Assembly: GCF_054482595.1 (NCBI RefSeq)
Contig: NZ_CM137008.1
Length of the DNA: 64,000 bases
Reading direction: 5' to 3' (one strand)
Made by a program: the position numbers and the translations under genes. Shown here piece by piece: positions 3,081-62,310 of the stretch. The notes below the pieces were generated by a model that saw only the letters and a program-made list of their open reading frames with translations, did not search any database and had not been told where the DNA came from. Numbering within the stretch: the first letter of the stretch is position 1; the number at the start of each line of letters is the position of its first letter.

Positions 3081-3803
3081 TCACTTATTCTGCGTGTGCA
3101 GCATATAGTTCACATCCACGCCGGGGCCGAGTTTAAAAGTATTAGTGATCGGGTTGTAATGTAGCCCGGTTATATGTCGCTCTTTAAGGCTTGTCTGATC
3201 TACCCAGCCAAGCAGCTCTGCCGGTTTAATAAACTTCTTCACATCATGCGTGCCTTTGGGCACCATGCGCAAAATATATTCCGCGCCAACCACCGCCATC
3301 AGCCATGACTTGCCGTTGCGGTTAAGCGTCGAGAAAAAGACATCGCCGCCCGGTTTCACCAGTTGCGCACAGGCTCTGACCACTGACTGCGGATCAGGGA
3401 CGTGCTCCAGCATCTCCATGCAGGTCACCACATCATACTGCCCGGCATGTTTTGCCGCGTGCTCTTCCACGGTTTCCTGCACGTAATCCACCTGAATGCC
3501 GCTTTCCAGCGCGTGCAGCTTTGCCACCTGCAATGGCTCAAAGCCCATATCCAGACCGGTCACCGTCGCGCCTTCGCGCGCCATACTCTCGGCCAGAATG
3601 CCGCCGCCACAACCGACATCGAGCACCTTTTTGCCAAATAAACCGCCAGCACGCTCGGCAATATAGCCCAGACGCAGCGGGTTAATGCGGTGCAGCGGTT
3701 TGAACTCACCTTCCAGATCCCACCAGCGGGAGGCGACGGCTTCAAATTTAGCGATCTCTTCGTGGTCTACGTTATGGTTTACCGGCGATTTTTCGGCATT
3801 CAT
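3081..3803 (-). CDS. ubiG: Ubiquinone biosynthesis O-methyltransferase UbiG (240 aa from MNAEKSP)
   Basis: Translation matches UbiG, SAM-binding VLDVGCGGG motif; ORF-track N-terminal extension trimmed to MNAEK start. Confidence 0.93.
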
Positions 3804-3949: not shown

Positions 3950-6577
3950 ATGAGCGACCTTGCGAGAGAAATTACACCGGTCAACATTGAGGAAGAGCTG
4001 AAGAGCTCCTATCTGGATTATGCGATGTCGGTCATTGTTGGCCGTGCGCTGCCAGATGTCCGAGATGGCCTGAAGCCGGTACACCGTCGCGTACTTTACG
4101 CCATGAACGTACTAGGCAATGACTGGAACAAAGCCTATAAAAAATCTGCCCGTGTCGTTGGTGACGTAATCGGTAAATACCATCCCCATGGTGACTTGGC
4201 GGTTTATAACACGATCGTCCGTATGGCGCAGCCATTCTCGCTGCGTTACATGCTGGTAGACGGTCAGGGTAACTTCGGTTCCATCGACGGCGACTCTGCG
4301 GCGGCAATGCGTTATACGGAAATCCGTCTGGCGAAAATTGCCCATGAACTGATGGCCGATCTCGAAAAAGAGACGGTCGATTTCGTTGATAACTATGACG
4401 GCACGGAAAAAATTCCCGACGTCATGCCAACCAAAATTCCTAACCTGCTGGTGAACGGTTCTTCCGGTATCGCCGTAGGTATGGCAACCAACATCCCGCC
4501 GCACAACCTGACGGAAGTCATCAATGGTTGTCTGGCGTATATCGATGATGAGGACATCAGCATTGAAGGGCTGATGGAACACATTCCGGGGCCAGATTTC
4601 CCGACGGCGGCAATCATCAACGGTCGTCGCGGTATCGAAGAAGCTTACCGTACCGGTCGCGGCAAGGTATATATCCGCGCCCGTGCTGAAGTGGAAGTTG
4701 ACGCCAAAACCGGACGTGAAACCATTATCGTCCACGAAATTCCGTATCAGGTGAACAAAGCGCGCCTGATCGAGAAGATTGCGGAACTGGTAAAAGAAAA
4801 ACGCGTGGAAGGCATCAGCGCGCTGCGTGACGAGTCTGACAAAGACGGTATGCGCATCGTGATTGAAGTGAAACGCGATGCGGTCGGTGAAGTGGTACTC
4901 AACAACCTCTACTCCCAGACCCAGTTGCAGGTTTCCTTCGGTATCAACATGGTGGCATTGCACCATGGTCAGCCGAAGATCATGAACCTGAAAGACATCA
5001 TCGCTGCGTTTGTTCGTCACCGCCGCGAAGTAGTGACCCGTCGTACTATTTTCGAACTGCGTAAAGCTCGCGACCGTGCGCATATCCTTGAAGCATTAGC
5101 CGTGGCGCTGGCGAACATCGACCCGATCATCGAACTGATCCGTCATGCGCCTACGCCTGCAGAAGCGAAAACCGCGCTGGTTGCTAATCCGTGGCAGCTG
5201 GGCAACGTTGCCGCGATGCTGGAACGTGCTGGCGACGATGCTGCGCGTCCGGAATGGCTGGAGCCAGAGTTCGGCGTGCGTGATGGTCTGTACTACCTGA
5301 CCGAACAGCAAGCTCAGGCGATTCTGGATCTGCGTTTGCAGAAACTGACCGGCCTTGAGCACGAAAAACTGCTCGACGAATACAAAGAGCTGCTGGATCA
5401 GATCGCGGAACTGTTGCGTATTCTTGGTAGCGCCGATCGTCTGATGGAAGTGATCCGTGAAGAGCTGGAGCTAGTTCGTGAACAGTTCGGTGACAAACGT
5501 CGTACTGAAATCACCGCCAACAGCGCAGACATCAACCTGGAAGATCTGATCACCCAGGAAGATGTGGTCGTGACGCTCTCTCACCAGGGCTACGTTAAAT
5601 ATCAGCCGCTTTCTGAATACGAAGCGCAGCGTCGTGGCGGGAAAGGTAAATCTGCCGCACGTATTAAAGAAGAAGACTTTATCGACCGACTGCTGGTGGC
5701 GAACACGCACGACCATATTCTGTGCTTCTCCAGCCGTGGTCGCGTCTATTCGATGAAAGTTTACCAGTTGCCGGAGGCCACTCGTGGCGCGCGCGGTCGT
5801 CCGATCGTCAACCTGCTGCCGCTGGAGCAGGACGAACGTATCACCGCGATCCTGCCGGTGACCGAGTTTGAAGAAGGAGTGAAAGTCTTCATGGCGACCG
5901 CTAACGGTACTGTGAAGAAAACCGTCCTCACCGAATTCAACCGTCTGCGTACCGCCGGTAAAGTGGCGATCAAACTGGTTGACGGCGATGAGCTGATCGG
6001 CGTTGATCTGACCAGTGGCGAAGATGAAGTAATGCTGTTCTCCGCCGAAGGTAAAGTGGTGCGCTTTAAAGAGTCTTCCGTCCGTGCGATGGGCTGCAAC
6101 ACCACCGGTGTGCGCGGTATCCGTTTAGGCGAAGGCGATAAAGTGGTCTCTCTGATCGTGCCTCGTGGCGATGGCGCAATCCTCACCGCAACGCAGAACG
6201 GTTATGGTAAACGTACCGCAGTGGCGGAATACCCAACCAAGTCGCGTGCGACGAAAGGGGTTATCTCCATCAAGGTTACCGAACGTAACGGTTTAGTGGT
6301 TGGCGCGGTGCAGGTAGATGACTGCGACCAGATCATGATGATCACCGATGCCGGTACGCTGGTACGTACTCGCGTTTCGGAAATCAGCATCGTGGGCCGT
6401 AACACCCAGGGCGTGATCCTCATCCGTACTGCGGAAGATGAAAACGTAGTGGGTCTGCAACGTGTTGCTGAACCGGTTGACGAGGAAGATCTGGATACCA
6501 TCGACGGCAGTGCCGCGGAAGGGGACGATGAAATCGCTCCGGAAGTGGACGTTGACGACGAGCCAGAAGAAGAATAA
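3950..6577 (+). CDS. gyrA: DNA gyrase subunit A
   Basis: 875 aa; N-terminal [51 protein letters not shown] region, acidic C-terminal tail. Confidence 0.98.
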
Positions 6578-16277: not shown

Positions 16278-19212
<2,935 letters not shown>

Positions 19213-22863: not shown

Positions 22864-22957
22864 AAAAAAAAACCGGATGCGAGGCATCCGGTTGAAATAG
22901 GGGTAAACAGACATTCAGAAATGAATGACGGTAATAAATAAAGTTAATGATGATAGC
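22864..22957 (-). ncRNA. micF: micF antisense sRNA (represses ompF)
   Basis: Minus-strand sequence GCTATCATCATTAACTTTATTTATTACCGTCATTCATTTCTGAATGTCTGTTTACCCCTATTTCAACCGGATGCCTCGCATCCGGTTTTTTTT, divergent from ompC. Confidence 0.9.
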
Positions 22958-23276
22958 GGGAGTTATTCTAGTTGCGAGTGAAGGTTTTGTTTTGACATTC
23001 AGTGCTGTCAAATACTTAAGAATAAGTTATTGATTTTAACCTTGAATTATCATTGCTTGATGTTAGGTGCTTATTTCGCCATTCCGCAATAATCTTAAAA
23101 AGTTCCCTTGCATTTACATTTTGAAACATCTATAGCGACAAATGAAACATCTTAAAAGTTTTAGTATCATATTCGTGTTGGATTATTCTGCATTTTTGGG
23201 GAGAATGGACTTGCCGACTGATTAATGAGGGTTAATCAGTATGCAGTGGCATAAAAAAGCAAATAAAGGCATATAA

Positions 23277-30957: not shown

Positions 30958-31330
30958 TGATGTGCCACATCCGGCATGGTATGCCGGATGTGGCGTATGC
31001 TGATAAGACGCGCCAGCGTCGCATCAGGCAACCGGCTTGGGTGTTAGATGTCGGATGCGGCGTAACCGACTTATTCGACCTACGGAGTGGAGCACTTCAC
31101 AGCGGTGTAGGCCTGATAAGACGCGTCAGCGTCGCATCAGGCAACCGGCTCGGACGTTGGATGTCGGATGCGGCGTAACCGCCTTATCCGACCTATGGGG
31201 TGGAGCACTTCACAGCGGTGTAGGCCTGATAAGACGCGCCAGCGTCGCATCAGGCAACCGGCTCGGGCGTTAGATGTCGGATGCGGTGTAACCGCCTTAT
31301 CCAACCTATGGGGTGCCGCACTTCACGGCA
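30958..31330. repeat. BIME cluster: about three tandem ~125-bp units of REP palindromes
   Basis: Repeated TGATAAGACGCGCCAGCGTCGCATCAGGCAACCGGCT...GATGTCGGATGCGGCGTAACCGCCTTATCCGACCTA units read directly. Confidence 0.85.
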
Positions 31331-48654: not shown

Positions 48655-50406
48655 TCATTCTAATGCCTTCTCAATGTTTGTATTTATTTCTGATAAACTA
48701 TTAATTACACCGTCAAATACAAAATCAAGAGCGTTACTATAACCAATTGCTAAAGTAGCTGAATCAAATCCTAGTTTTGCTAAATGCTCAATTGATTTGT
48801 TTACTGCTTCATGAGCTTCAGCATTTCTTAAATCATTATTTATAAAAAACGATGCCACTTTTTTATTTTGAGTTTTAAAATCTGCAAATTCTGTGGCGTG
48901 CTTAAGTACAGATGAGTCTTCATTCTGTTCAATAATTGGCTCGATAAGGTTAAGTAATGATTGAAGTAGTTTCAGAGTTTGGAATTTTTCGATGTCTGAT
49001 TTATTAACACCCATTGCAATTAATAATTTTTTTAAAGAGCCTGATTTAATCTTATTTAAAATCTCATTAATAGTCTTACATCTATTCAAAAAATCCGGTT
49101 CTTGCATGTCATTTGGCGCAACAAATGCTAGCTTCTGCAATACTGGATAGTTAGAGATTCCTTCTGATTCTAACTCTGTGCGATTAATTTCTAAAATGTC
49201 TGCATTGGATAAAGTAACACCAATACTTCTACCAAGTGCTACAAGATTATCGCTAAGTCTTGCTAGTTCTCTAGCGAATTTAAATGTTTTAGATACAATA
49301 TGTTCTCCGCTTAAATCATTTTCAGTGATTTGGTTTGGATCCTTAGCATAATCAAAAACATGATAAACCTCCTCTTCAGGAATTCCTCGATACAGCTCAT
49401 AAAACGGAATTCTGACTAAGTTTCTTCCAACCCTGATGCAATCCCTAAAGGACCATTGTCCACCGTAGCTTGGAGCAACCCTATAAGAATAGCCGTCATA
49501 AAATGGAATAGCATCATATGAAGAATCTTTTTCATATTTAGTAAGGAAAGAGTCATTAACCAAGACATATTCATTGTTTCTGATGTCTTTGGCTCTTGAA
49601 CTCGTCATAGGAGTATCATATCCCGGCCATATTAATTCATCTATATTTAATTTTTTACAAAGTTCAGGCTGAACAGATTGTACACTTCCCCATGCTTGCA
49701 ATAATATATTGTCCCCATTATCTACTATCTCAAAATCTATCCAAGGCAAATCAAACTTGAAATGTTTTGACCCAGACAATAAGTTAATTACTTCCGTCGT
49801 TCTTTGAATACGTGCTTCATAGTAAAAAACACGTACACCAACATAATTTCTCATCCAGAGGTATTTTCTTAGATAATCATTACGCATTGTCCATTTTACA
49901 TCTTTATTACTTCTAAAGTAATACTCGCTTGACACATCCCCTTGTGCGACTCCATAATCGGGCAAGCTTACCTCATCGAAAATGACTTTTTGCTCAGTGT
50001 CACCTATAAGTCTGGGTTTTAGACCAAGCATCATCCATACATCTTCAGCTAAAAAAAATGAAAAGTGAGAACTATCACCCCAAGAAGCTACAATATACTT
50101 ATAACCTGAAATTGATAAACTATAATCTCTTGCTCCGCCTTTAGACCTACAGTCAGGAGTCGAAAATGAAACTAAACCATTAGTAGACTCCTGGAGAACT
50201 TTGATATTATTGATATCTTCTTGTGGTACGGTAGCCATTGTCATATGAGCACACTCATGATTATCTTTAAAAAGATTTTTTTCGTATCTATGTGTGACAA
50301 TGACCTCTTTCTGTGGATTAGTAATATCCTCTATAGATAATAAATCTTTAAGACCTTGAGGGATCTGATCTACTGGTAAAGGTAATTGTGATATATAGTC
50401 AATCAT
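48655..50406 (-). CDS. Hypothetical 583-aa cargo protein (no TM, no recognised NTPase motif), C-terminal Rx4H (HEPN-like) motif; candidate defence/abortive-infection gene
   Basis: Long clean ORF, visibly AT-rich, own ~320-bp AT-rich upstream region, located between att core and int. Confidence 0.7.
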   Translation of the reverse strand: MIDYISQLPLPVDQIPQGLKDLLSIEDITNPQKEVIVTHRYEKNLFKDNHECAHMTMATVPQEDINNIKVLQESTNGLVSFSTPDCRSKGGARDYSLSISGYKYIVASWGDSSHFSFFLAEDVWMMLGLKPRLIGDTEQKVIFDEVSLPDYGVAQGDVSSEYYFRSNKDVKWTMRNDYLRKYLWMRNYVGVRVFYYEARIQRTTEVINLLSGSKHFKFDLPWIDFEIVDNGDNILLQAWGSVQSVQPELCKKLNIDELIWPGYDTPMTSSRAKDIRNNEYVLVNDSFLTKYEKDSSYDAIPFYDGYSYRVAPSYGGQWSFRDCIRVGRNLVRIPFYELYRGIPEEEVYHVFDYAKDPNQITENDLSGEHIVSKTFKFARELARLSDNLVALGRSIGVTLSNADILEINRTELESEGISNYPVLQKLAFVAPNDMQEPDFLNRCKTINEILNKIKSGSLKKLLIAMGVNKSDIEKFQTLKLLQSLLNLIEPIIEQNEDSSVLKHATEFADFKTQNKKVASFFINNDLRNAEAHEAVNKSIEHLAKLGFDSATLAIGYSNALDFVFDGVINSLSEINTNIEKALE

Positions 50407-50728: not shown

Positions 50729-51913
50729 TTAACTGGCTTTAATTTCTCCATGTGGTACGACAACCCAATCAATATGGTTTTGCGTATAAATCTTGGTTGA
50801 CTTGGAGTCGCTGTGCGCCATTCGTGCTTGCGGATCGATACCTTGCTGATCGAAAAGATACGCTGCTAATGCTCTAATTTCGTGAAAGGTTGGTCTTTCA
50901 TCTATCGGTAGATTGTCGCATAAACCTAGCTTGTCACGTGTGGCTGAAAACGACCGGCTCAAATAGTCCGGTGCAACTTGAGTAGGGTGTGAAACCTCTT
51001 TGCTGCGTTTAACCTGCCGTTCAGGGATCCTGTGAACGACAAACGGACTGGCCACATTATCTCGGCTATCATCAATTATTCGTTTCAACTCTTCACCAAT
51101 CGGTATTGCAACGTGTGATGCCTCTTTTTTTTGCACTTTTTGCCTGTGGATGTAAAGCGTCCCATATATGCCATTTTGTGGTTGTTCGAACCAGACACAT
51201 CCACATATACCGTCTTTAGGTTCGCGAATTGAGTAACGGATTCGCGATACTTCGAGTCGTGCATGTGTAGTCTGCAATGCTAGGTCCATTGCTGTTCTTA
51301 ACCATGGTGCAGCGGCCTGCCTGATAGCTATAAAATGCTCGAGTGACAGGCGCCGTCTTTTCTTCTCATCAGTCCTACGCATTTTTTTTCTGATGGCCGG
51401 GTTATCCAGCATTAGTGATTCATCGACCGCATAAGAGAACAACTTTTTAAGGAAGCTGACCTTTCTGTTCTGCACATTTGCGGATGCGCAGGCATGATAT
51501 TTATTGATGTAGGTATTAACGTGTTCAAGTGCAATATCGCATGCTGGAACATTTACGAAAAACGCTTTTACGCGTAGAGCGTCATTTTTCCAGTCATCTA
51601 AGGTGCTCTGGGAAGGACGTTCGTCTTCGATAATCCGGGTCATTATGTGATCAACATGTTCAGCAAATGGTTTTGCTTCTCCGATAACACCGCCAGATTC
51701 TCTAATAAGATTATCTACTGATGGAGATAATTCTGGTCGCATCCTCAGGTTGTACTCTCTGGCGATTGCAATGGCTATTGCCCTATCCTTACCTATATTT
51801 TTCTTCTTTCCGGTAATAAGTGTGAATTTATAAACACCTCGATCTTTATCAAAAATCAGATAATCAGGAAGATGTCTGTATTCTTTTTTACGTGGCCTTG
51901 CCGCCATGGTCAC
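50729..51913 (-). CDS. int: Phage integrase, tyrosine recombinase
   Basis: 394 aa; C-terminal catalytic region with HEIRALAAYL (HxxR) and STKIYTQ (Tyr); overlaps xis. Confidence 0.92.
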   Translation of the reverse strand: MTMAARPRKKEYRHLPDYLIFDKDRGVYKFTLITGKKKNIGKDRAIAIAIAREYNLRMRPELSPSVDNLIRESGGVIGEAKPFAEHVDHIMTRIIEDERPSQSTLDDWKNDALRVKAFFVNVPACDIALEHVNTYINKYHACASANVQNRKVSFLKKLFSYAVDESLMLDNPAIRKKMRRTDEKKRRRLSLEHFIAIRQAAAPWLRTAMDLALQTTHARLEVSRIRYSIREPKDGICGCVWFEQPQNGIYGTLYIHRQKVQKKEASHVAIPIGEELKRIIDDSRDNVASPFVVHRIPERQVKRSKEVSHPTQVAPDYLSRSFSATRDKLGLCDNLPIDERPTFHEIRALAAYLFDQQGIDPQARMAHSDSKSTKIYTQNHIDWVVVPHGEIKAS

Positions 51914-52119
51914 CCCTCATTTATTAACTTGCGAACAGCTTGACTAACCATTGAGTCGACTCCCCATTTTTCTGTTTCGCAGACAAAAACAGAACCGTCC
52001 ACGATGCGTCCCATGAGTAGACCGTTCTCGACCCAACGTTTTATCGTTCGGTTGTCAGGAATTGAGCCATTAGAGAATTCACGGCGTCCCCATTGGCTCG
52101 CTTTCATTAGTTTTGCCAT
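51910..52119 (-). CDS. xis: Excisionase (Xis-like)
   Basis: Small ORF overlapping int start by 4 nt; ...RTIKRWVENG... winged-helix excisionase motif; start at MAKLMK chosen (ORF-track start 52164 possible). Confidence 0.75.
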   Translation of the reverse strand: MAKLMKASQWGRREFSNGSIPDNRTIKRWVENGLLMGRIVDGSVFVCETEKWGVDSMVSQAVRKLINEG

Positions 52120-52180
52120 GGCTGTTTCTCCACTTAGCCCGCTGCACACGGGTAGTAATATCAAATTCCAGTCCTGATAA

Positions 52181-52396
52181 TTAATTTTGTTCTCTGGTTG
52201 CTACTTGTTTTATTGGCCTGATGCTGTCCAGGAGCAGACGGCGGCGCATGTTTGGCGCGCCCCAACGGTAACCAGTCTTTTTGTCGTAGGATTCACAACG
52301 TCCGACAACCCAGGAGGTTTCAGTGGAATGTAATTTCATCCGCTTTTCACCGTCTCGGGTGATAACAATTCCTGTATGAGTTTTTATCACGCTCAT
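52181..52396 (-). CDS. Hypothetical small phage protein (71 aa)
   Basis: ORF upstream of xis with RBS GGAGAATAAAAAATG; function unknown. Confidence 0.55.
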   Translation of the reverse strand: MSVIKTHTGIVITRDGEKRMKLHSTETSWVVGRCESYDKKTGYRWGAPNMRRRLLLDSIRPIKQVATREQN

Positions 52397-52920
52397 TTTT
52401 TATTCTCCGGTGCTTTCGGCATTACTGCCCAGTGGGTAATATTGACGTTTTCAAGGTCCCCGACCTGAAATGTCCACTGCCATTCTCCGGTTTCTTTTTG
52501 CCCCCAATGTGTACCAGAGAGAACGCCAGCCAATCAGCCAGCCTTCTCCATTAGCATCAAATAACAGAACACTTTCATGTCTGTTTTGTAAAAAGGACGG
52601 TACCAGCCGGAAGCAAGGGTACAAGCTGGTACCTCCAAGACTACACACAGCATAAAGTTGTGGTGCCGGGTGCCTCCCGGTGCCTGGCGAAGGTTGCACA
52701 CCAGGCGGGTGGGTATCCACAGAAGGTCGACTGTCAGCCTCAACCTTTACCCGCGTGCGCTGAGCCGCATTCACCACAACGCTAAGGATTCTCTCTGGTT
52801 GAAAATACTTAGCTGTTATGTGCCTGCTTTTAGCCACATCAGGCGAGGTGGACCTAGTTATTCCCCAACAACAAGGATTTGGTTATTATGTAACCCTCCC
52901 CAACAACGATAAGGATTTAT

Positions 52921-53017: not shown

Positions 53018-53512
53018 ATGACCAGAGACGATTATAAATTTTATATTCACTACTCTTATGTATTGGAGAAGATGAATTACACGTTGTTAACTCGTATTGA
53101 TAAATTAATAACGTTGATGTTAATCGTTCTCGGTTTTTCAGTTTTCGCCCCGTACAGTAATTTATTTATTTTCGGTTTGTTTGTTGCCGTACTTTCGGTT
53201 CTTCAGTTGGTCTATCAGTTCGGCCAGGAGGCTGGGATGTCTAAAGAACAAGCGAGGCATTACAAAAGACTGCTGATTGAGTCTGATACTCTTTCTGAAG
53301 ATCAGTTGCAAGCTAGGTATTTAAAAATCCAAGATACCGATAGTAATCCATGGAAATCACTTGAACGAGCGGCTTTCATTCGGGCCTGCATTTTTGCTGG
53401 TGTTCCAACTAAGTACGATCTAACAACCAAAGAAAAATTTATTGCTTGGTGTGCGGGAGATCTACCTCTAGAGAATGAACTAACGGATATTAATGATGAC
53501 CAACAAGCATAA
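53018..53512 (+). CDS. Small membrane protein with two N-terminal TM helices; SieB-like position (superinfection exclusion candidate)
   Basis: 164 aa, AT-rich, hydrophobic segments LITLMLIVLGFSVFAPY and LFIFGLFVAVLSVLQLVY; sits between early-left region and cI on opposite strand. Confidence 0.65.
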   Translation: MTRDDYKFYIHYSYVLEKMNYTLLTRIDKLITLMLIVLGFSVFAPYSNLFIFGLFVAVLSVLQLVYQFGQEAGMSKEQARHYKRLLIESDTLSEDQLQARYLKIQDTDSNPWKSLERAAFIRACIFAGVPTKYDLTTKEKFIAWCAGDLPLENELTDINDDQQA

Positions 53513-53655: not shown

Positions 53656-53678
53656 GGGTTACTGATTTTTAAAGAGCG

Positions 53679-53703
53679 AAGCGTCCGGTAGGGCGCTTTT
53701 TTG
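53679..53703 (+). terminator. Rho-independent terminator closing the membrane-protein/micro-ORF unit
   Basis: AAGCGTCC-GGTA-GGGCGCTT hairpin (one G-U pair) followed by TTTTTT. Confidence 0.6.
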
Positions 53704-53817
53704 TTGCTAACGAATCATCTTGGACTTCATATGCCCCAGGCGGCTACTTCGTGAGCGTCCTGCCTGTTTGTTGTTTCTCTTGGGTACATTATGTATCTCA
53801 AAGGTACATTGTCAAGC

Positions 53818-53854: not shown

Positions 53855-54529
53855 TTAGGCTTTGATTTTGTATCTTCTTGGTTTTCCTGAGAAAATCACA
53901 GTACCAATTATAGAGCAATTACCGTTGATCTTAATGTAAGGCTCAGGCCAGTTTGGGTTTAACGCTTTGAGATAACGCTGTGTCCCATCTTCTATCAACC
54001 TTTTGAAGGTGGTTTCACCTGTATCGTGCATCAATGCAATAACGTCGTCACCGTGGCAGGCAGGTACTTCAGGATCGACAAAAATCATGTCTCCCGGGCG
54101 GTACTCATCAATCATTGAATCACCTATCACCCGCAAGATATAAGTCATTTCCCCACAGGGTACAGGGCAGGGATACGTTTCTGCTGTGCTCAAATCAACC
54201 TCAGAATATCCAACTTCTTTCCATGCTCCGGCCTGTACCCATGATATGACAGGGACTAATGTGATTTGTTTATTAGTGATTGAAACATCAGGTTTTTTTG
54301 TGATGTTCGTTGTCTGGTGTTCTTGATCGAGCCATCCGACAGGCAGGTCGAAACATTTTTCGATGTGTCGTGCCATGCTGTCACCGATATTTTTAGTAGC
54401 ACCATCTCCCATAAACCTGCTGGTTTGGGTTGGCTCGCGATCAATCATAGTGGCAAAGGAAGAATTCCCGCCAACACCATCTCTCAGTTTTCTGGCGTTA
54501 GACCGCCGGATGTCATGGATTGTTTTCAT
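53855..54529 (-). CDS. Phage repressor CI-like (HTH plus S24 LexA-type autopeptidase domain)
   Basis: 224 aa; C-terminal ...VIGDSMIDEYRPGDMIFVDPE... S24 Ser/Lys peptidase signature; divergent from cro-like gene. Confidence 0.88.
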   Translation of the reverse strand: MKTIHDIRRSNARKLRDGVGGNSSFATMIDREPTQTSRFMGDGATKNIGDSMARHIEKCFDLPVGWLDQEHQTTNITKKPDVSITNKQITLVPVISWVQAGAWKEVGYSEVDLSTAETYPCPVPCGEMTYILRVIGDSMIDEYRPGDMIFVDPEVPACHGDDVIALMHDTGETTFKRLIEDGTQRYLKALNPNWPEPYIKINGNCSIIGTVIFSGKPRRYKIKA

Positions 54530-59720: not shown

Positions 59721-60083
59721 TTGTGGAGAAAGTTGATGCGTGATATGTATGAAGTAATGGATCGTTGGGGAGCTTGGGCTGCTTCAGACAATAGCGGAGT
59801 GGACTGGCAACCGGTAGCCGCTGGCTTCAAGGGACTTTTACCTCATGGCAAAAAGTCCCGGATTCAGTGTGATGATGACGAAGGCATTATGATAGACAGT
59901 TGTGTGGCTCGGTTGCGTAAATATAGGCCTGAAGAATATGAGCTAATCATTGCTCACTTTGTTATCGGTATCTCATTACGCACTATTGCGAAGAAGAGAA
60001 AATGCTCTGATGGGACTATAAGAAAAAAGTTGCAAGCTGCATTGGGATTTATTGATGCAGTTATATATATAATACATGGGTAA
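59721..60083 (+). CDS. Late-gene antiterminator Q (QuuD-type)
   Basis: 120 aa; DRWGAWAA...AAGFKGLL...KSR.QCDDD...CSDG... closely parallels QuuD-family Q proteins. Confidence 0.85.
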   Translation: MWRKLMRDMYEVMDRWGAWAASDNSGVDWQPVAAGFKGLLPHGKKSRIQCDDDEGIMIDSCVARLRKYRPEEYELIIAHFVIGISLRTIAKKRKCSDGTIRKKLQAALGFIDAVIYIIHG

Positions 60084-60090
60084 TTTATTA

Positions 60091-60109
60091 GACGGCCATA
60101 TTGGCCGTC
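60091..60109. terminator. Palindromic hairpin GACGGCC-ATATT-GGCCGTC between convergent Q and the antisense cassette
   Basis: Perfect 7-bp inverted repeat overlapping the cassette stop codon; no strong U-run. Confidence 0.4.
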
Positions 60110-61295
60110 AGCTAAATAAATATGTAATAGCATAAGGTGTAAGTAAAAAGTAGAATCTAAATGTAAGATATAAGCCACATAAAACTATAATTCCTAATGA
60201 GGCAAAAACAACTTTCTGAACAAGCAATCTTGTGGTTAAACTATCAAATGTATCCTTTATATCTTCGTAAATAGCCTTGAAGTTATATTCTGCTTGTTGT
60301 TTTTTATGATTTAACTCATCATTTATTGCTGTTAAAGTTTGCCATTGATTAAATAGAACAAATATAATCATAATAGTGAAGAACAATGCACCCAACACTA
60401 CAGCTGTGTTTATTAATGCTTGACTATCCCAACCATTAGCCTGCTTCATTTGAGTCGCAACGATAATTGTTGCGACGGGGATACCTAATATCTGATTTTG
60501 TATGTCACTGAATACTTTATGTATTTTCCCCATCTCTTCTATTTTGGCTACTCGTAACTGATCTAGTATTTTCTCGTAAGAAAAACCAGAAACGAATACT
60601 TTGTATCCTTTTTGATAACTTTCATAAAGTTGTCCTAAATCCCTTAACATGAAGGAAAAAGAGGTTTCTTTAGTTTTAGATTCACATGATGATTTTATAC
60701 TACTTGCTAAAATAGTAAGTTTTTGATCTTTATGCGTATCTTCTGCAAAGTTTGCGATCAAATTATGAATCAGATCTCCATTAACATTCATAAGATCATC
60801 GCTAGAATAATTTACTGGAATTTTTAGTACGTTGGATTCGACGAATACCAATTCAAAATTTGTTTCATCTAAATAAGCAGAACAATCTTTGAATAAAGTA
60901 ATTAAGCTCAAAACATCTCTGTACTTGGATATAATAGCAGGCGACTTTTTATCCCTGTTGTGATAATTAAGTTCGATTATAAAGAAGTTACTGGCTTCCT
61001 TTATCCTATTTTTAGGATTTTTTAAATACTCATTAAAAGAGAAATGTAGCTGCCCCAATCGTAATTTGGGGGGGGTTATATGTAAGGTTATAGTTTGGCC
61101 TAACTCAATGTTGCCAGATTCAAGGGTGATGCCAAAATCATGGGGATTCTCTGTGATATCGTTGATGATGTCACAGAGCTCCTCGTTTGAAAGAATGAGT
61201 GATGCTTCAGATAGGGTACCTGCAAATGTAGCGGCCTTGTAAATAGTCACTAAGTCTTTGAAGGTTCTCTGGTTTTTACTGCTCATCCTCTTCAC
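60108..61295 (-). CDS. Hypothetical 395-aa protein with two C-terminal TM helices; downstream gene of antisense two-gene moron
   Basis: Clean AT-rich ORF; hydrophobic segments ALINTAVVLGALFFTIMIIFVLF and VVFASLGIIVLCGLYLTFRFYFLL; overlaps upstream gene by 20 nt. Confidence 0.75.
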   Translation of the reverse strand: MKRMSSKNQRTFKDLVTIYKAATFAGTLSEASLILSNEELCDIINDITENPHDFGITLESGNIELGQTITLHITPPKLRLGQLHFSFNEYLKNPKNRIKEASNFFIIELNYHNRDKKSPAIISKYRDVLSLITLFKDCSAYLDETNFELVFVESNVLKIPVNYSSDDLMNVNGDLIHNLIANFAEDTHKDQKLTILASSIKSSCESKTKETSFSFMLRDLGQLYESYQKGYKVFVSGFSYEKILDQLRVAKIEEMGKIHKVFSDIQNQILGIPVATIIVATQMKQANGWDSQALINTAVVLGALFFTIMIIFVLFNQWQTLTAINDELNHKKQQAEYNFKAIYEDIKDTFDSLTTRLLVQKVVFASLGIIVLCGLYLTFRFYFLLTPYAITYLFS

Positions 61296-62310
61296 CTAAT
61301 TCTGATAAAATCTCTGATCTTAGCGTATCCGGAATCTCGGTAAGTATCAATTTATCGTTTTCTGAATCATAAAGAACGCTGCCATCATGCAAGGCCGCAC
61401 GCTCGAATTTCAGAGACCAATGTTTGGACTTTCCTTTGAAACTAACAAGCCCACGTATAACGTTGCCATCAGGCACGAACCCATCAGAGAACTCCAGATC
61501 GTCATTGGTTAACTTTTCAACTAACAACTCAGGAGCAGTTGGCCATATCTCGTTTGCAAAAATTTGAGTGTCGAAAGTTTCACCAGAACGATTTAAATTT
61601 TTTAATTTTTCATGAGCCTTATTTAGGAACTCTTCACGTGCCTCTGGTTCAAAACCTCTTTCAGTAGCAAATTCTAAAAGTGCATTCCGTAATTTTGTTG
61701 TTTCTTGTTTGGCAATTAGAATATCGTTGCAACCTAAAAACTTTTTGAAATAACCTGCTACTGAATTTTGCCCCTTTAGAAAGCTAATATATCTCTCTTT
61801 GCCATTCTGGCGCCCAGTTAAGTCAATTCGTCCCGCTACTCGAAGTTTAGCAATGTCTAGATATTCACTTTCTTGAATTTCAAAATCGTGGACTGAAGAG
61901 CCAACTGCTGAAGTTAGGATTGCAACCATCAAATAATGATTTCCATTTACCTCATTATGGGCAATTATTACATAACCACCAGTAGACATTGATTCATCAT
62001 CGGCTCTGGCTTTTAAATGATTGATCATTCGGATACTAGTATCATAAAAACTATGTGTTTTATTTACGAAATAATCATCAACGATATTACCCATAGGGTA
62101 ACTATCGCGGTCATCTTCAAATTTCCCATATCCTTTACCTGCTCTCCCAGAGTACCTTTCAGTAAGTGCGTTAGAGAGGTCTTTTGATGCTTGCTGAACA
62201 GGTTTTTCTGAAGGACAAGGAATAATGGTGGCTAACCCCTGTTGTTCCTTGTTCATAATGTGAACAATAAACTTATGAGTGATATTAGTGGGGGTCGCTG
62301 ATGCAGTCAT
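61276..62310 (-). CDS. Divergent NdpA/YejK-family (NA37) nucleoid-associated-like protein, prophage-encoded
   Basis: 344 aa; blocks GGYVIIAHNEV..YLMVAIL, GRIDLTGRQNGKERYISFLKGQ..VAGYFKKFLG parallel host YejK ([51 protein letters not shown]); RBS AGGA upstream. Confidence 0.75.
   Translation of the reverse strand: MTASATPTNITHKFIVHIMNKEQQGLATIIPCPSEKPVQQASKDLSNALTERYSGRAGKGYGKFEDDRDSYPMGNIVDDYFVNKTHSFYDTSIRMINHLKARADDESMSTGGYVIIAHNEVNGNHYLMVAILTSAVGSSVHDFEIQESEYLDIAKLRVAGRIDLTGRQNGKERYISFLKGQNSVAGYFKKFLGCNDILIAKQETTKLRNALLEFATERGFEPEAREEFLNKAHEKLKNLNRSGETFDTQIFANEIWPTAPELLVEKLTNDDLEFSDGFVPDGNVIRGLVSFKGKSKHWSLKFERAALHDGSVLYDSENDKLILTEIPDTLRSEILSELGEEDEQ

Follow-up and report, generated by a model that had tools for sequence, protein, structure and literature searches.

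We study a stretch of 480 base pairs (bp), positions 52440 to 52920, within a 64,000-nucleotide piece of DNA (assembly GCF_054482595.1, contig NZ_CM137008.1), which we call the window. Its middle part, at about 52590-52820, is an intact minus-strand gene whose product is a structured RNA from the STnc100/EcOnc27/PasD superfamily. The analysis demonstrates its homology, its strand, a structure with covariation, a terminator, synteny and the lack of a conserved reading frame, and we are highly confident that this is a genuine conserved structured RNA of that superfamily. The best explanation overall, to which we assign a probability of roughly one half, is that the gene belongs to a sub-type of the superfamily, called class II below, and that its product would be released as a small RNA (sRNA) acting with Hfq. 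A sequence-only reading of the stretch had proposed a structured RNA in the early-left region of a prophage, and this central idea is supported by the STnc100 match, the fold and the covariation.

The flagged stretch as a whole is composite: it is made of the 3' stump of an Eae-like gene, of the structured RNA, and of partial duplicates of the 5' edge of that RNA. The proposal of a structured RNA thus holds for the middle, and not for the left end, 52440-52580, which is a gene remnant. In the same way, the high G+C content attributed to the full 480 bp is found over about 52600-52800, where it reaches 0.585, and not in the flanks, at 0.33-0.49. The sequence-only reading considered that alignment to a degraded gene would speak against an RNA: such an alignment exists for the left third only, the Eae stump, and the RNA part is without a conserved frame.

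A search with the covariance models of Rfam, one of the checks proposed, gives a sub-threshold match to STnc100 (RF02076) at positions 52587-52810 of the minus strand, with a score of 39.9 bits, an E-value of 2.1e-6 and the full model, 1-206, aligned. When the whole 64 kb are searched, the E-value is 3.4e-5 and no other such match is found in the window. Relatives of class II score 30-41 bits against the same model, and beyond STnc100 no Rfam 15 family matches the element, copies from distant genera included. The predicted fold of the minus strand has a z-score of -4.5, none of 200 shuffles being as good, against -2.4 for the plus strand; moreover, G-U pairs of helix P1, hairpin H3 and the pseudoknot described below exist only when the minus strand is read. 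The window copy is homologous to elements of the phages SfV, SfIV, Kati, ST64B and phiES15, and 99-100% identical to copies of isolated phages and other strains; all its invariant positions, its pseudoknot and its terminator are intact.

The STnc100 match, the fold and the homology with phages delimit an element that consists of an anti-P1 segment, a helix P0, a core, a linker and a terminator. Its 5' end is placed at 52820 and could reach upstream to about 52877. The local hairpins listed by the sequence-only reading belong to it: CCGGG-TGCCT-CCCGG is present at 52666-52680; GCCTGG...CCAGGC, at 52682-52706, has in fact a stem of 8 bp; and the 9-bp hairpin GGTACCAGC-N17-GCTGGTACC, placed at 52609-52643, exists ten bases to the left, at 52599-52633. 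What had been overlooked is a long-range inverted repeat that encloses the inner hairpins, in which GTTGTGGTG (52657-65) pairs with CACCACAAC (52772-80).

On the minus strand, this repeat is helix P1, in which GUUGUGGUG (52780-52772) pairs with CACCACAAC (52665-52657), and it closes the core domain, 52657-52780. P1 is kept in 19 homologues, with exchanges among G-C, A-U and G-U pairs, and with strand-specific G-U pairs. It is followed by an invariant junction AAU (52771-52769) and by helix a (52753-52768), in which GCGG pairs with C-A-CGC, leaving a bulged A and a conserved loop CUNNGCG; this architecture equals that of the canonical STnc100 helix CCCC/G-A-GGG, and the stem covaries between the two classes. 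Helix P2, formed by GGGU (52752-49) and ACCC (52710-07), encloses the 5' strand of the pseudoknot, AAGGUUG (52741-52747); its complementarity persists in six versions of the sequence when flanking features serve as anchors. The 3' strand of the pseudoknot, CAACCUU (52696-52690), lies in the loop of hairpin H3, GCCUGGUG/CGCCAGGC, at 52682-52706. The last hairpin, H4 (CCGGG-AGGCA-CCCGG, 52666-52680), is invariant where this can be assessed: its sequence CCGGGAGGCACCCGG is identical in all class II copies and in nearly all copies of class I, an invariance to be read knowing that H4 was itself part of the pattern used to search for homologues.

Homologues were drawn from annotated phages, from 120 IMG/VR loci, from 120 loci with the canonical 5' motif of STnc100, and from 120 stretches with the invariant hairpin; the comparison of the superfamily rests on 59 viral and 117 genomic unique domains. 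The motif formed by H4 and the 3' strand of P1 occurs in at least 120 genomic stretches, nearly all from Enterobacterales. Among the genera represented in this genomic set are Citrobacter, Enterobacter, Pantoea, Erwinia, Rahnella, Klebsiella, Buttiauxella and Superficieibacter, and 2-3 copies are often found at distances of about 250 nucleotides (nt). Class I is canonical STnc100: a conserved promoter-like TTGAC... directly 5' of P1, the AAU junction, helix a, a variable insert, H3, H4 and the 3' strand of P1, then a variable linker and a terminator. Class II, the type found in the window, keeps P1, AAU, the architecture of helix a with the same loop, H3 and H4, and adds P2 and the 5' helix P0. 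Copies of class I also occur as tandem arrays, 2-3 copies at distances of about 200 bp to about 2 kb, with the same core and different linkers, an arrangement that fits a constant scaffold with a variable seed.

In both classes, the stretch that directly follows helix a can pair with the loop of H3, and this pairing is the pseudoknot. At least 12 unrelated pairs of complementary sequences are found across the two classes: the pair of the window, AAGGUUG/CAACCUU, is replaced elsewhere by AAGGCUGG/UCAGCCUU, UGGUUAU/AUAACCA, UUGGUUUUA/UAAAGCCAG, CUGACAA/UUGUCAG, GGCAAA/UUUGCC, AUCAGCA/UGCUGAU, CUGGUG/CACCAG, ACUGGAUA/UAUCCAGU or UCAGUUGA/UUAACUGA. A control that shuffles the loop discriminates weakly, with p<=0.05 in 20% of the sequences, and in its place we compared cognate with non-cognate strands: cognate strands pair over a mean of 6.1 nt, against 4.6 nt for non-cognate ones (p = 1.3e-4). 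The pseudoknot is absent from the STnc100 model of Rfam, and the preprint that ties PasD to STnc100 never uses the word (bioRxiv 10.64898/2026.05.13.724894).

The sequence-only reading had proposed to look for compensatory changes in an alignment of relatives. In an alignment of 19 class II sequences, the 42 pairs of the structure are 99% paired, against 37-48% in controls where the register is slid, the figure of 99% being inflated by the fact that the register of P2, H3 and the pseudoknot was fitted with anchors and complementarity. The variety of pair types is not inflated in this way: double changes are seen in 19 of the 42 pairs, namely 2 of 9 in P1, 3 of 7 in P2, 8 of 9 in the pseudoknot and 6 of 8 in H3. 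Plain MAFFT alignment followed by RNAalifold, on 20 class II sequences, recovered P1, helix a and H4 only. The other helices are lost because the variable middle misaligns, and the helices were therefore registered by anchors and N-padding.

The core is followed by a single-stranded linker, UUUAUGCUGUGUGUAGUCUU (52637-52656), which is unpaired in the predicted fold and is a candidate seed. The linker, as UGCUGUGUG(U/A)AGUCUU, is conserved in ST64B and phiES15 despite their different terminators, and its conservation spans lineages that differ both in terminator and in P0. The element ends with an intrinsic terminator (52590-52636) whose stem GGAGGUACCAGC...GCUGGUACCGUCC, the 9-bp hairpin with flanking pairs, is followed by U5 (52594-52590). 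At the same place, relatives have terminators of unrelated sequence, GCCCGC..GCGGGC-U7 in phiES15 and GUCGGCGUC..GACGCCGAC-CU5 in ST64B, and copies of E. coli, Salmonella and Cronobacter have a terminator after the domain.

Of the element, phage mEp460 and many Stx2c and cdtI phages have retained the same terminator and, from the core, just ...CACCGGUCACCACAAC, which is the 3' edge of H4 and P1. From this comparison mEp460 appears to be a deletion derivative that lost the RNA core through recombination. We considered that the sRNA DicF might fill the vacant slot in such terminator-only phages, and rejected the idea: mEp460 has no Rfam match there. The terminator module of the sister copy in e14 of E. 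coli K-12 (5201-5254, minus strand, of the fetched stretch) gives a match to DicF of 28.5 bits, the threshold being 48, which hints that terminator modules of prophage sRNAs are exchanged between elements.

On the 5' side, positions 52782-52820 contain an inverted repeat, P0 (52812-01 / 52793-82), preceded by CAUAAC (52820-15), which can pair with the 5' strand of P1, GUUGUG, and thus offers an alternative, anti-P1, to the closing helix of the core. The class II copies share P0 (AGAGCAYUG/CAGUGCUCU) 5' of P1 and, 5' of P0, a segment CACAAC that can pair with the 5' strand of P1. Compensatory versions of these pairings exist: CACAAU/AUUGUG in copy L270, and a version of 14 bp in copy L033. A transcript of the window with a longer 5' end is predicted to fold as the anti-P1 hairpin and not as P1. 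The 3' strand of P0 resembles a boxA, (U/C)GCUCUU, in several relatives, and is degenerate in the window (AUCCUUAG).

The two tandem repeat copies described by the sequence-only reading are real, at 52863-79 and 52901-17 (AAUCCUUAKCGUUGUKG on the minus strand), and they have a third copy at 52774-90, which is the junction of the 3' strand of P0 and the 5' strand of P1 inside the RNA. On the minus strand the repeats read AAUCCUUAUCGUUGUUG, AAUCCUUGUUGUUGGGG and AAUCCUUAGCGUUGUGG, the last being the RNA's own junction, and the pattern CAACRN{1,4}AAGGATT occurs 3 times in the 64 kb, against 0.02 expected. Since one copy is the RNA's own junction, the two outer ones are partial duplicates of the 5' edge of the RNA. 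They are confined to close relatives such as SfIV and Kati, and may be the scar of a recombination, serve as alternative partners for pairing, or act as DNA sites.

Between these repeats (52863-52917) lies a weak promoter-like sequence on the minus strand, TTATCG-16-CATAAT, the sole promoter-like site near the element. A candidate for the leftward early promoter PL, TTGACA-16-CATAAT with 11 of 12 matches, is found at 53788-53815 (minus strand), just after the cI gene and its terminator, and it is the same in SfV. In a class II relative, copy L115, TTGACA-18-TACATT stands directly before P1, which would allow independent transcription of that copy. About 100 nt downstream of the candidate PL, a bidirectional terminator hairpin (53676-53699, minus strand) has a minus-strand tail, CGCUCUUUAAAAAUC, that closely resembles the boxA and spacer of lambda nutL (CGCUCUUAAAAAUUAA). 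SfV lacks this feature at the same place, and it could be due to chance or be a nut-like site. Between the candidate PL and the RNA, and convergent with them, a gene at 53018-53512 (plus strand) encodes a protein of 164 amino acids (aa) with apparent hydrophobic helices, which matches phrog_6315 (function unknown) and has no NCBIfam or PADLOC match; it occupies the position of a moron expressed in the lysogen, and the annotation pipeline PGAP calls its last 91 aa only.

The core is found, at a coverage of at least 80%, in 1829 of 5426 complete E. coli genomes, about a third of them, and these copies are always annotated as 'hypothetical protein' or ymfH. We examined 11 lambdoid contexts of class II, in Escherichia, Shigella, Salmonella, Cronobacter, Pantoea and Buttiauxella. 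In each of them the element shares its strand with a cI/LexA-type repressor gene that lies upstream of it, and the first early-left genes come after it. This series begins with a phrog_204 gene and a yfdQ-like gene in SfV and one Buttiauxella prophage, and with kil/gam in phiES15. P1-like phages depart from the pattern: in them the element follows tRNA genes and precedes an SPFH gene and ban. We also looked for a copy in CPS-53 of K-12, which has yfdP-yfdT in common with the relatives: the intergenic region upstream of yfdP contains iteron-like repeats, and no copy of the element. Another, conserved module was seen in the leaders of first early-left genes of Escherichia, Pantoea and Buttiauxella, UGUGGAG and a hairpin with a UUGCAG loop before the Shine-Dalgarno sequence and AUG. 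It lies at 3373-3480 of the fetched stretch in SfV, is followed by the phrog_204 gene in SfV and in locus L308, and is deleted in the window.

The window itself consists of chromosome followed by a lambdoid prophage. The element is located between cI and xis/int, at the head of the early-left unit, and is co-oriented with cI, xis and int. To its left are a phage ORF (open reading frame) of 71 aa directly beside the flagged stretch (52181-52396), a small ORF at the position of xis (51910-52164) and, at the left end of the prophage, the integrase gene (50729-51913), all on the minus strand. To its right, the cI-type repressor gene (53855-54529, minus strand; phrog_4) is followed on the plus strand by cro-, cII-, O- and Q-like genes, the Q-like antiterminator gene (59721-60083) being recognised by a protein-family match. 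As for N, no such gene was noticed among the ORFs and protein-family matches of the window, in which no search aimed at N was made.

The E. coli strain 50EVA, 99.8% identical to the window, carries two PGAP pseudogenes over the flagged stretch, both 'frameshifted, incomplete'. The left one, at 52393-52582 on the minus strand, is a real stump, the 3' remainder of an Eae/YfdS-like gene: phages 1720a-02 and mEp460 have such a gene, whose 3' part shows 96% identity to it, and it matches phrog_583. In SfV, SfIV, Kati and mEp460, the interval between the element and eae contains a gene of 120 aa (phrog_204), a yfdQ-like gene and a yfdR-like gene; similarity of the window to the intact phages ends at 52580, a few bases past the terminator of the RNA. 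This comparison indicates that a deletion in the window removed the 5' part of eae together with the yfdP-, yfdQ- and yfdR-like genes.

What could such an RNA do? Of the three candidates put forward by the sequence-only reading, a phage sRNA fits best, the element being a sub-threshold relative of STnc100, EcOnc27 and PasD. STnc100 (RF02076), which is also EcOnc27 and sRNA103, is an sRNA that binds Hfq; like the RNA of the window it is borne by prophages, lambdoid ones that include those of Stx. Under the names EcOnc27 and sRNA103 it has been verified by Northern blot and found bound to Hfq (PMC7873438); PasD (PasD1 and PasD2) is an Hfq-dependent sRNA of prophages of enteropathogenic E. coli, found by RIL-seq and verified by Northern blot (PMC8550237), and both have many RIL-seq partners in the literature. 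Kinship between PasD and STnc100 has been proposed (bioRxiv 10.64898/2026.05.13.724894). With STnc100 the window RNA shares the P1 strands GGUG/CACC, the AAU junction, helix a with its bulged A and its CUNNGCG loop, H3, the H4 sequence CCGGGAGGCACCCGG, the topology of the pseudoknot, and the order of a variable linker and an intrinsic terminator. It differs by its helix a (GCGG.. against CCCC.. in STnc100), by the addition of P2 around the pseudoknot strand, by P0 and anti-P1 where canonical copies have a promoter abutting P1, and by its location after cI, where the early-left genes begin, whereas STnc100 is found between Q or stx and the lysis genes.

A copy of the shared core from strain E2348/69, retrieved with the H4 pattern, may be PasD, and we tentatively take it as such. 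If it is, PasD belongs to class I, has a short insert, sits in the late region near Q and lpxR, and carries a linker, its seed, unrelated to that of the window. Class II is a sub-type that Rfam and the genome pipelines fail to recognise, within a superfamily that is already known. A full-text search of the literature for the invariant motif found no paper, and the literature on sRNAs in ST64B and e14 contained nothing that maps to the locus of the element.

With these relatives as a guide, the RNA would be made from its own weak promoter, or by leftward early transcription after SOS induction, and the transcript would end at its own terminator, yielding a discrete RNA of about 230-290 nt. This RNA would bind Hfq and base-pair with mRNAs through the exposed linker, as its studied relatives do, the pseudoknotted core playing the part of a constant scaffold. 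That the RNA is expressed in this strain, where its 5' end lies, that it binds Hfq and that it acts in trans are all inferences. Action in trans, in particular, is a tentative claim, whose chances we put slightly below even. The sister copy in e14, annotated as ymfH, is strongly induced by DNA damage together with xisE and intE (PMC11228462), which points to the expression of a sister copy. Of the features of a free-standing gene, the window copy has the terminator and lacks a promoter abutting P1; canonical copies of class I carry both a promoter and a terminator of their own, and the class II copy L115 has such a promoter.

Several observations weigh against a released sRNA of this superfamily, beside the inflated percentage of pairing mentioned above. 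The score of 39.9 bits lies below the gathering threshold of STnc100, which is 47. The U-tail has just 5 U, which is short for the typical 3' end of an Hfq-binding RNA. No convincing sigma-70 promoter was found directly upstream of the element, the best candidate having 8 of 12 matches, and about 900 nt, with a convergent gene and a bidirectional terminator in between, separate the element from the candidate PL. The conserved anti-P1 alternative has no obvious role in a simple trans-acting sRNA. Finally, copies in Pantoea, Erwinia and Buttiauxella have no terminator: the domain is followed by hairpins, a Shine-Dalgarno sequence and the first early-left start codon.

These last observations lead to the rival reading that survives best, which we consider possible though rather unlikely: the element would be a cis-acting leader of the early-left operon, in which the anti-P1/P1 domain governs transcription or translation past the adjacent terminator. 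As an RNA-based element of read-through, attenuation or sensing, it would fill the place held by nutL and N, or by putL, in other lambdoid phages, the short RNA being a by-product. The terminator-less copies have the layout of a cis-acting 5' leader: in several genera the domain runs, through hairpins that are not terminators and have a UUGCAG loop, into GUGUGGAG and the AUG of the first gene. The position after cI and ahead of the early-left genes is the same in 11 of 11 lambdoid contexts; the mutually exclusive pairings are conserved with compensatory changes, and are energetically competitive in the window copy; and RNAs with a specific binding partner typically show invariant unpaired nucleotides together with a pseudoknot, as here. 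An N-like gene was not noticed in these phages, in which no search was aimed at it, and SfV, SfIV and Kati, which are viable, need expression beyond the terminator. In K-12 e14, ymfH, xisE and intE are not only co-induced: they are described in the literature as one operon. A leader accounts better than an sRNA for the constant location after cI, for the copies without a terminator and for the anti-P1 switch.

However, the closest characterised relatives are free-standing, have their own promoter and terminator, and accumulate as short RNAs. Because class I relatives accumulate in this terminated form, constitutive antitermination by the shared core is disfavoured. Inspection by eye for an alternative pairing of the 3' strand of P1 or of H3 with the terminator revealed nothing longer than 5 bp, the rightward early operon has no further copy, and in the window the downstream target genes are deleted. 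Short leader peptides after the domain, in the Pantoea and Buttiauxella copies, were considered and dropped, as the frames are inconsistent. A leader and an sRNA are compatible, since a leader that terminates can also release an sRNA. In a more specific version, to which we give only modest credit, the class II domain is a pseudoknotted leader with an anti-P1/P1 switch, and a partner, be it RNA polymerase, a Nus factor or a small molecule, licenses read-through into the early-left genes. As to a riboswitch, the sole match in Rfam 15 is to STnc100, and the alternative anti-P1/P1 pairings are present.

The lambda nutL site (boxA-boxB) also lies in the leader of a leftward early operon. The boxA-like segment of the window differs from it in being base-paired and degenerate, and no N gene was noticed, in a survey not aimed at finding one; H4 has the dimensions of a boxB, 5 bp and a loop of 5 nt, but not a GNRA-like loop. 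DicF is another element of comparison: it is an sRNA of the Qin prophage, encoded in the repressor-controlled dicB operon by the immunity region, with a 3' end at an intrinsic terminator. It differs from the window RNA by its length, 53 nt, and by the absence of a structured core, and the window copy gives no match to DicF. An RNA responsible for 'transcription-termination immunity' in SfV was considered and set aside: Rfam places C4 and isrK inside orf37 of SfV, on the other side of cI, and these are separate elements. Both score above threshold there (6360-6548 of the fetched stretch) and in the counterparts of ST64B and sal3; the prophage of the window has no such match.

Two further readings are improbable, to about the same degree. 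In the first, the direct repeats would be an array of DNA binding sites for a regulator of divergent promoters, and the GC-rich hairpins would be incidental. Three copies of about 17 bp, spaced by 38 and 89 bp where 0.02 are expected, are located between the minus-strand RNA gene and the plus-strand gene at 53018-53512. However, these repeats are partial copies of the 5' edge of the RNA, which suggests scars of duplication or recombination; SfV, ST64B and phiES15 lack two of them and have the RNA; and no similar motif exists at the cI/cro operator region or elsewhere in the window. In the second, the RNA gene would be a functionless relic, intact in appearance but stranded, its operon having been deleted. 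In favour of this, the early-left genes downstream are deleted, a convergent gene and a terminator stand between the candidate PL and the element, and the sister copy in e14 is visibly decaying; against it, the invariant positions, the pseudoknot and the terminator are all intact, and the copy is 99-100% identical to those of isolated phages and other strains.

The sequence-only reading had also named antitermination RNAs of the type of HK022 put. With putL and putR the window RNA has in common to be a structured RNA, in the early operon of a lambdoid phage without N, upstream of terminators, and in the window the terminator comes immediately after it. A functional analogy with put is possible, and the RNA may have a put-like job, namely an RNA-based control of read-through. 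The put RNAs act through the zinc-binding domain of the beta' subunit, in a factor-independent antitermination, and their two sites lie directly downstream of PL and downstream of PR. Membership in the put family is another matter, and very improbable: put has about 70 nt in two stem-loops (PMC9378689), against a pseudoknotted core of about 125 nt and five helices; the RNA is a single copy about 900 nt from the candidate PL, and an Rfam search found no second copy on the PR side; a blastn comparison (word size 7) with the 27.5-33.5 kb immunity/PL/PR region of HK022 yields only the 9-14-mers expected by chance, and no invariant motif.

Hardly more credible is the reading in which the element is a protein-coding gene, or the degraded remnant of one, in the guise of a 128-aa ORF, of YmfH, or of the 'frameshifted hypothetical protein' of PGAP. 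Annotation favours it, with a pseudogene at 52581-52777 in strain 50EVA and with SfIV_34 and K-12 ymfH over the same sequence, and the 128-aa frame (52451-52837, minus strand) is open in the window. But stop codons interrupt this frame in 11 of 20 homologues, and on neither strand is any frame open in all 20, which contradicts the second pseudogene call of PGAP, the one that covers the RNA. The invariant blocks GGUGAAUGCGG... and ACCGGGAGGCACCCGGCACC are 88-111 nt apart, and the whole domain measures 115-138 nt among homologues, in both cases with all three residues modulo 3; substitutions track base-pairing, and not codons. The sole protein-family match of the ORF, residues 83-115 to phrog_583, comes from the unrelated Eae-like stump, and the remainder crosses the RNA: the ORF, which the sequence-only reading had called implausible, is a chimera of the two and not a gene.

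The case of ymfH deserves attention. Under this gene (b1142), in e14 of K-12 (NC_000913.3, about 1201069-1201413), lies a slightly decayed version of the same sequence, which scores 29.2 bits against STnc100; an A of the H4 loop is deleted, and one stem G is replaced by A. Since a copy of the RNA underlies ymfH and no frame is conserved, ymfH is probably mis-annotated. A clone of ymfH has been reported as a trigger of RcaT, the toxin of retron-Sen2 (bioRxiv 10.1101/2020.06.22.160242): the active agent could be the RNA, and not a protein.

A few other features of the window were recorded. Between the Q-like gene and the lysis genes, a cassette of two genes (60108-62310, minus strand) encodes a YejK-like nucleoid-associated protein and a partner of 395 aa; it has weak NCBIfam 'DS1_1/DS1_2 anti-phage' matches, of 56 and 70 bits, far below cut-off, and no PADLOC match, and is a candidate prophage defence moron. 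An ORF of 583 aa (48655-50406, minus strand), at the edge of the prophage by the integrase, is annotated as hypothetical in RefSeq, has no match in PHROG, NCBIfam or PADLOC, and is possibly cargo. The chromosomal part contains MicF (22865-22958), a partial match to the antisense RNA Rev24 (17081-17535, minus strand; 113 bits against 246), and several naRNA4 repeats of the REP type (19127-19203 and 30998-31306).

Taken as a class II member of the STnc100 superfamily, the element is an instance of a widespread RNA that annotation has missed because it falls below the Rfam threshold, its copies being labelled as hypothetical proteins, pseudogenes or YmfH. Findings on ymfH in K-12, namely its SOS induction, the intE-xisE-ymfH operon and the triggering of a retron toxin, may thus concern an RNA and not a protein. 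The superfamily of STnc100 and PasD is also more structured than described, with a conserved pseudoknot and invariant loops beyond the Rfam model, which suggests that the core binds a specific partner. The position of the element at the head of the early-left unit, in phages without N, makes it a candidate for passing early terminators. If the class II domain were indeed a leader that binds a partner, it would represent a new class of RNA-based antitermination or sensor element in lambdoid phages without N, and the core of STnc100 and PasD would be a partner-binding module reused by free-standing sRNAs.

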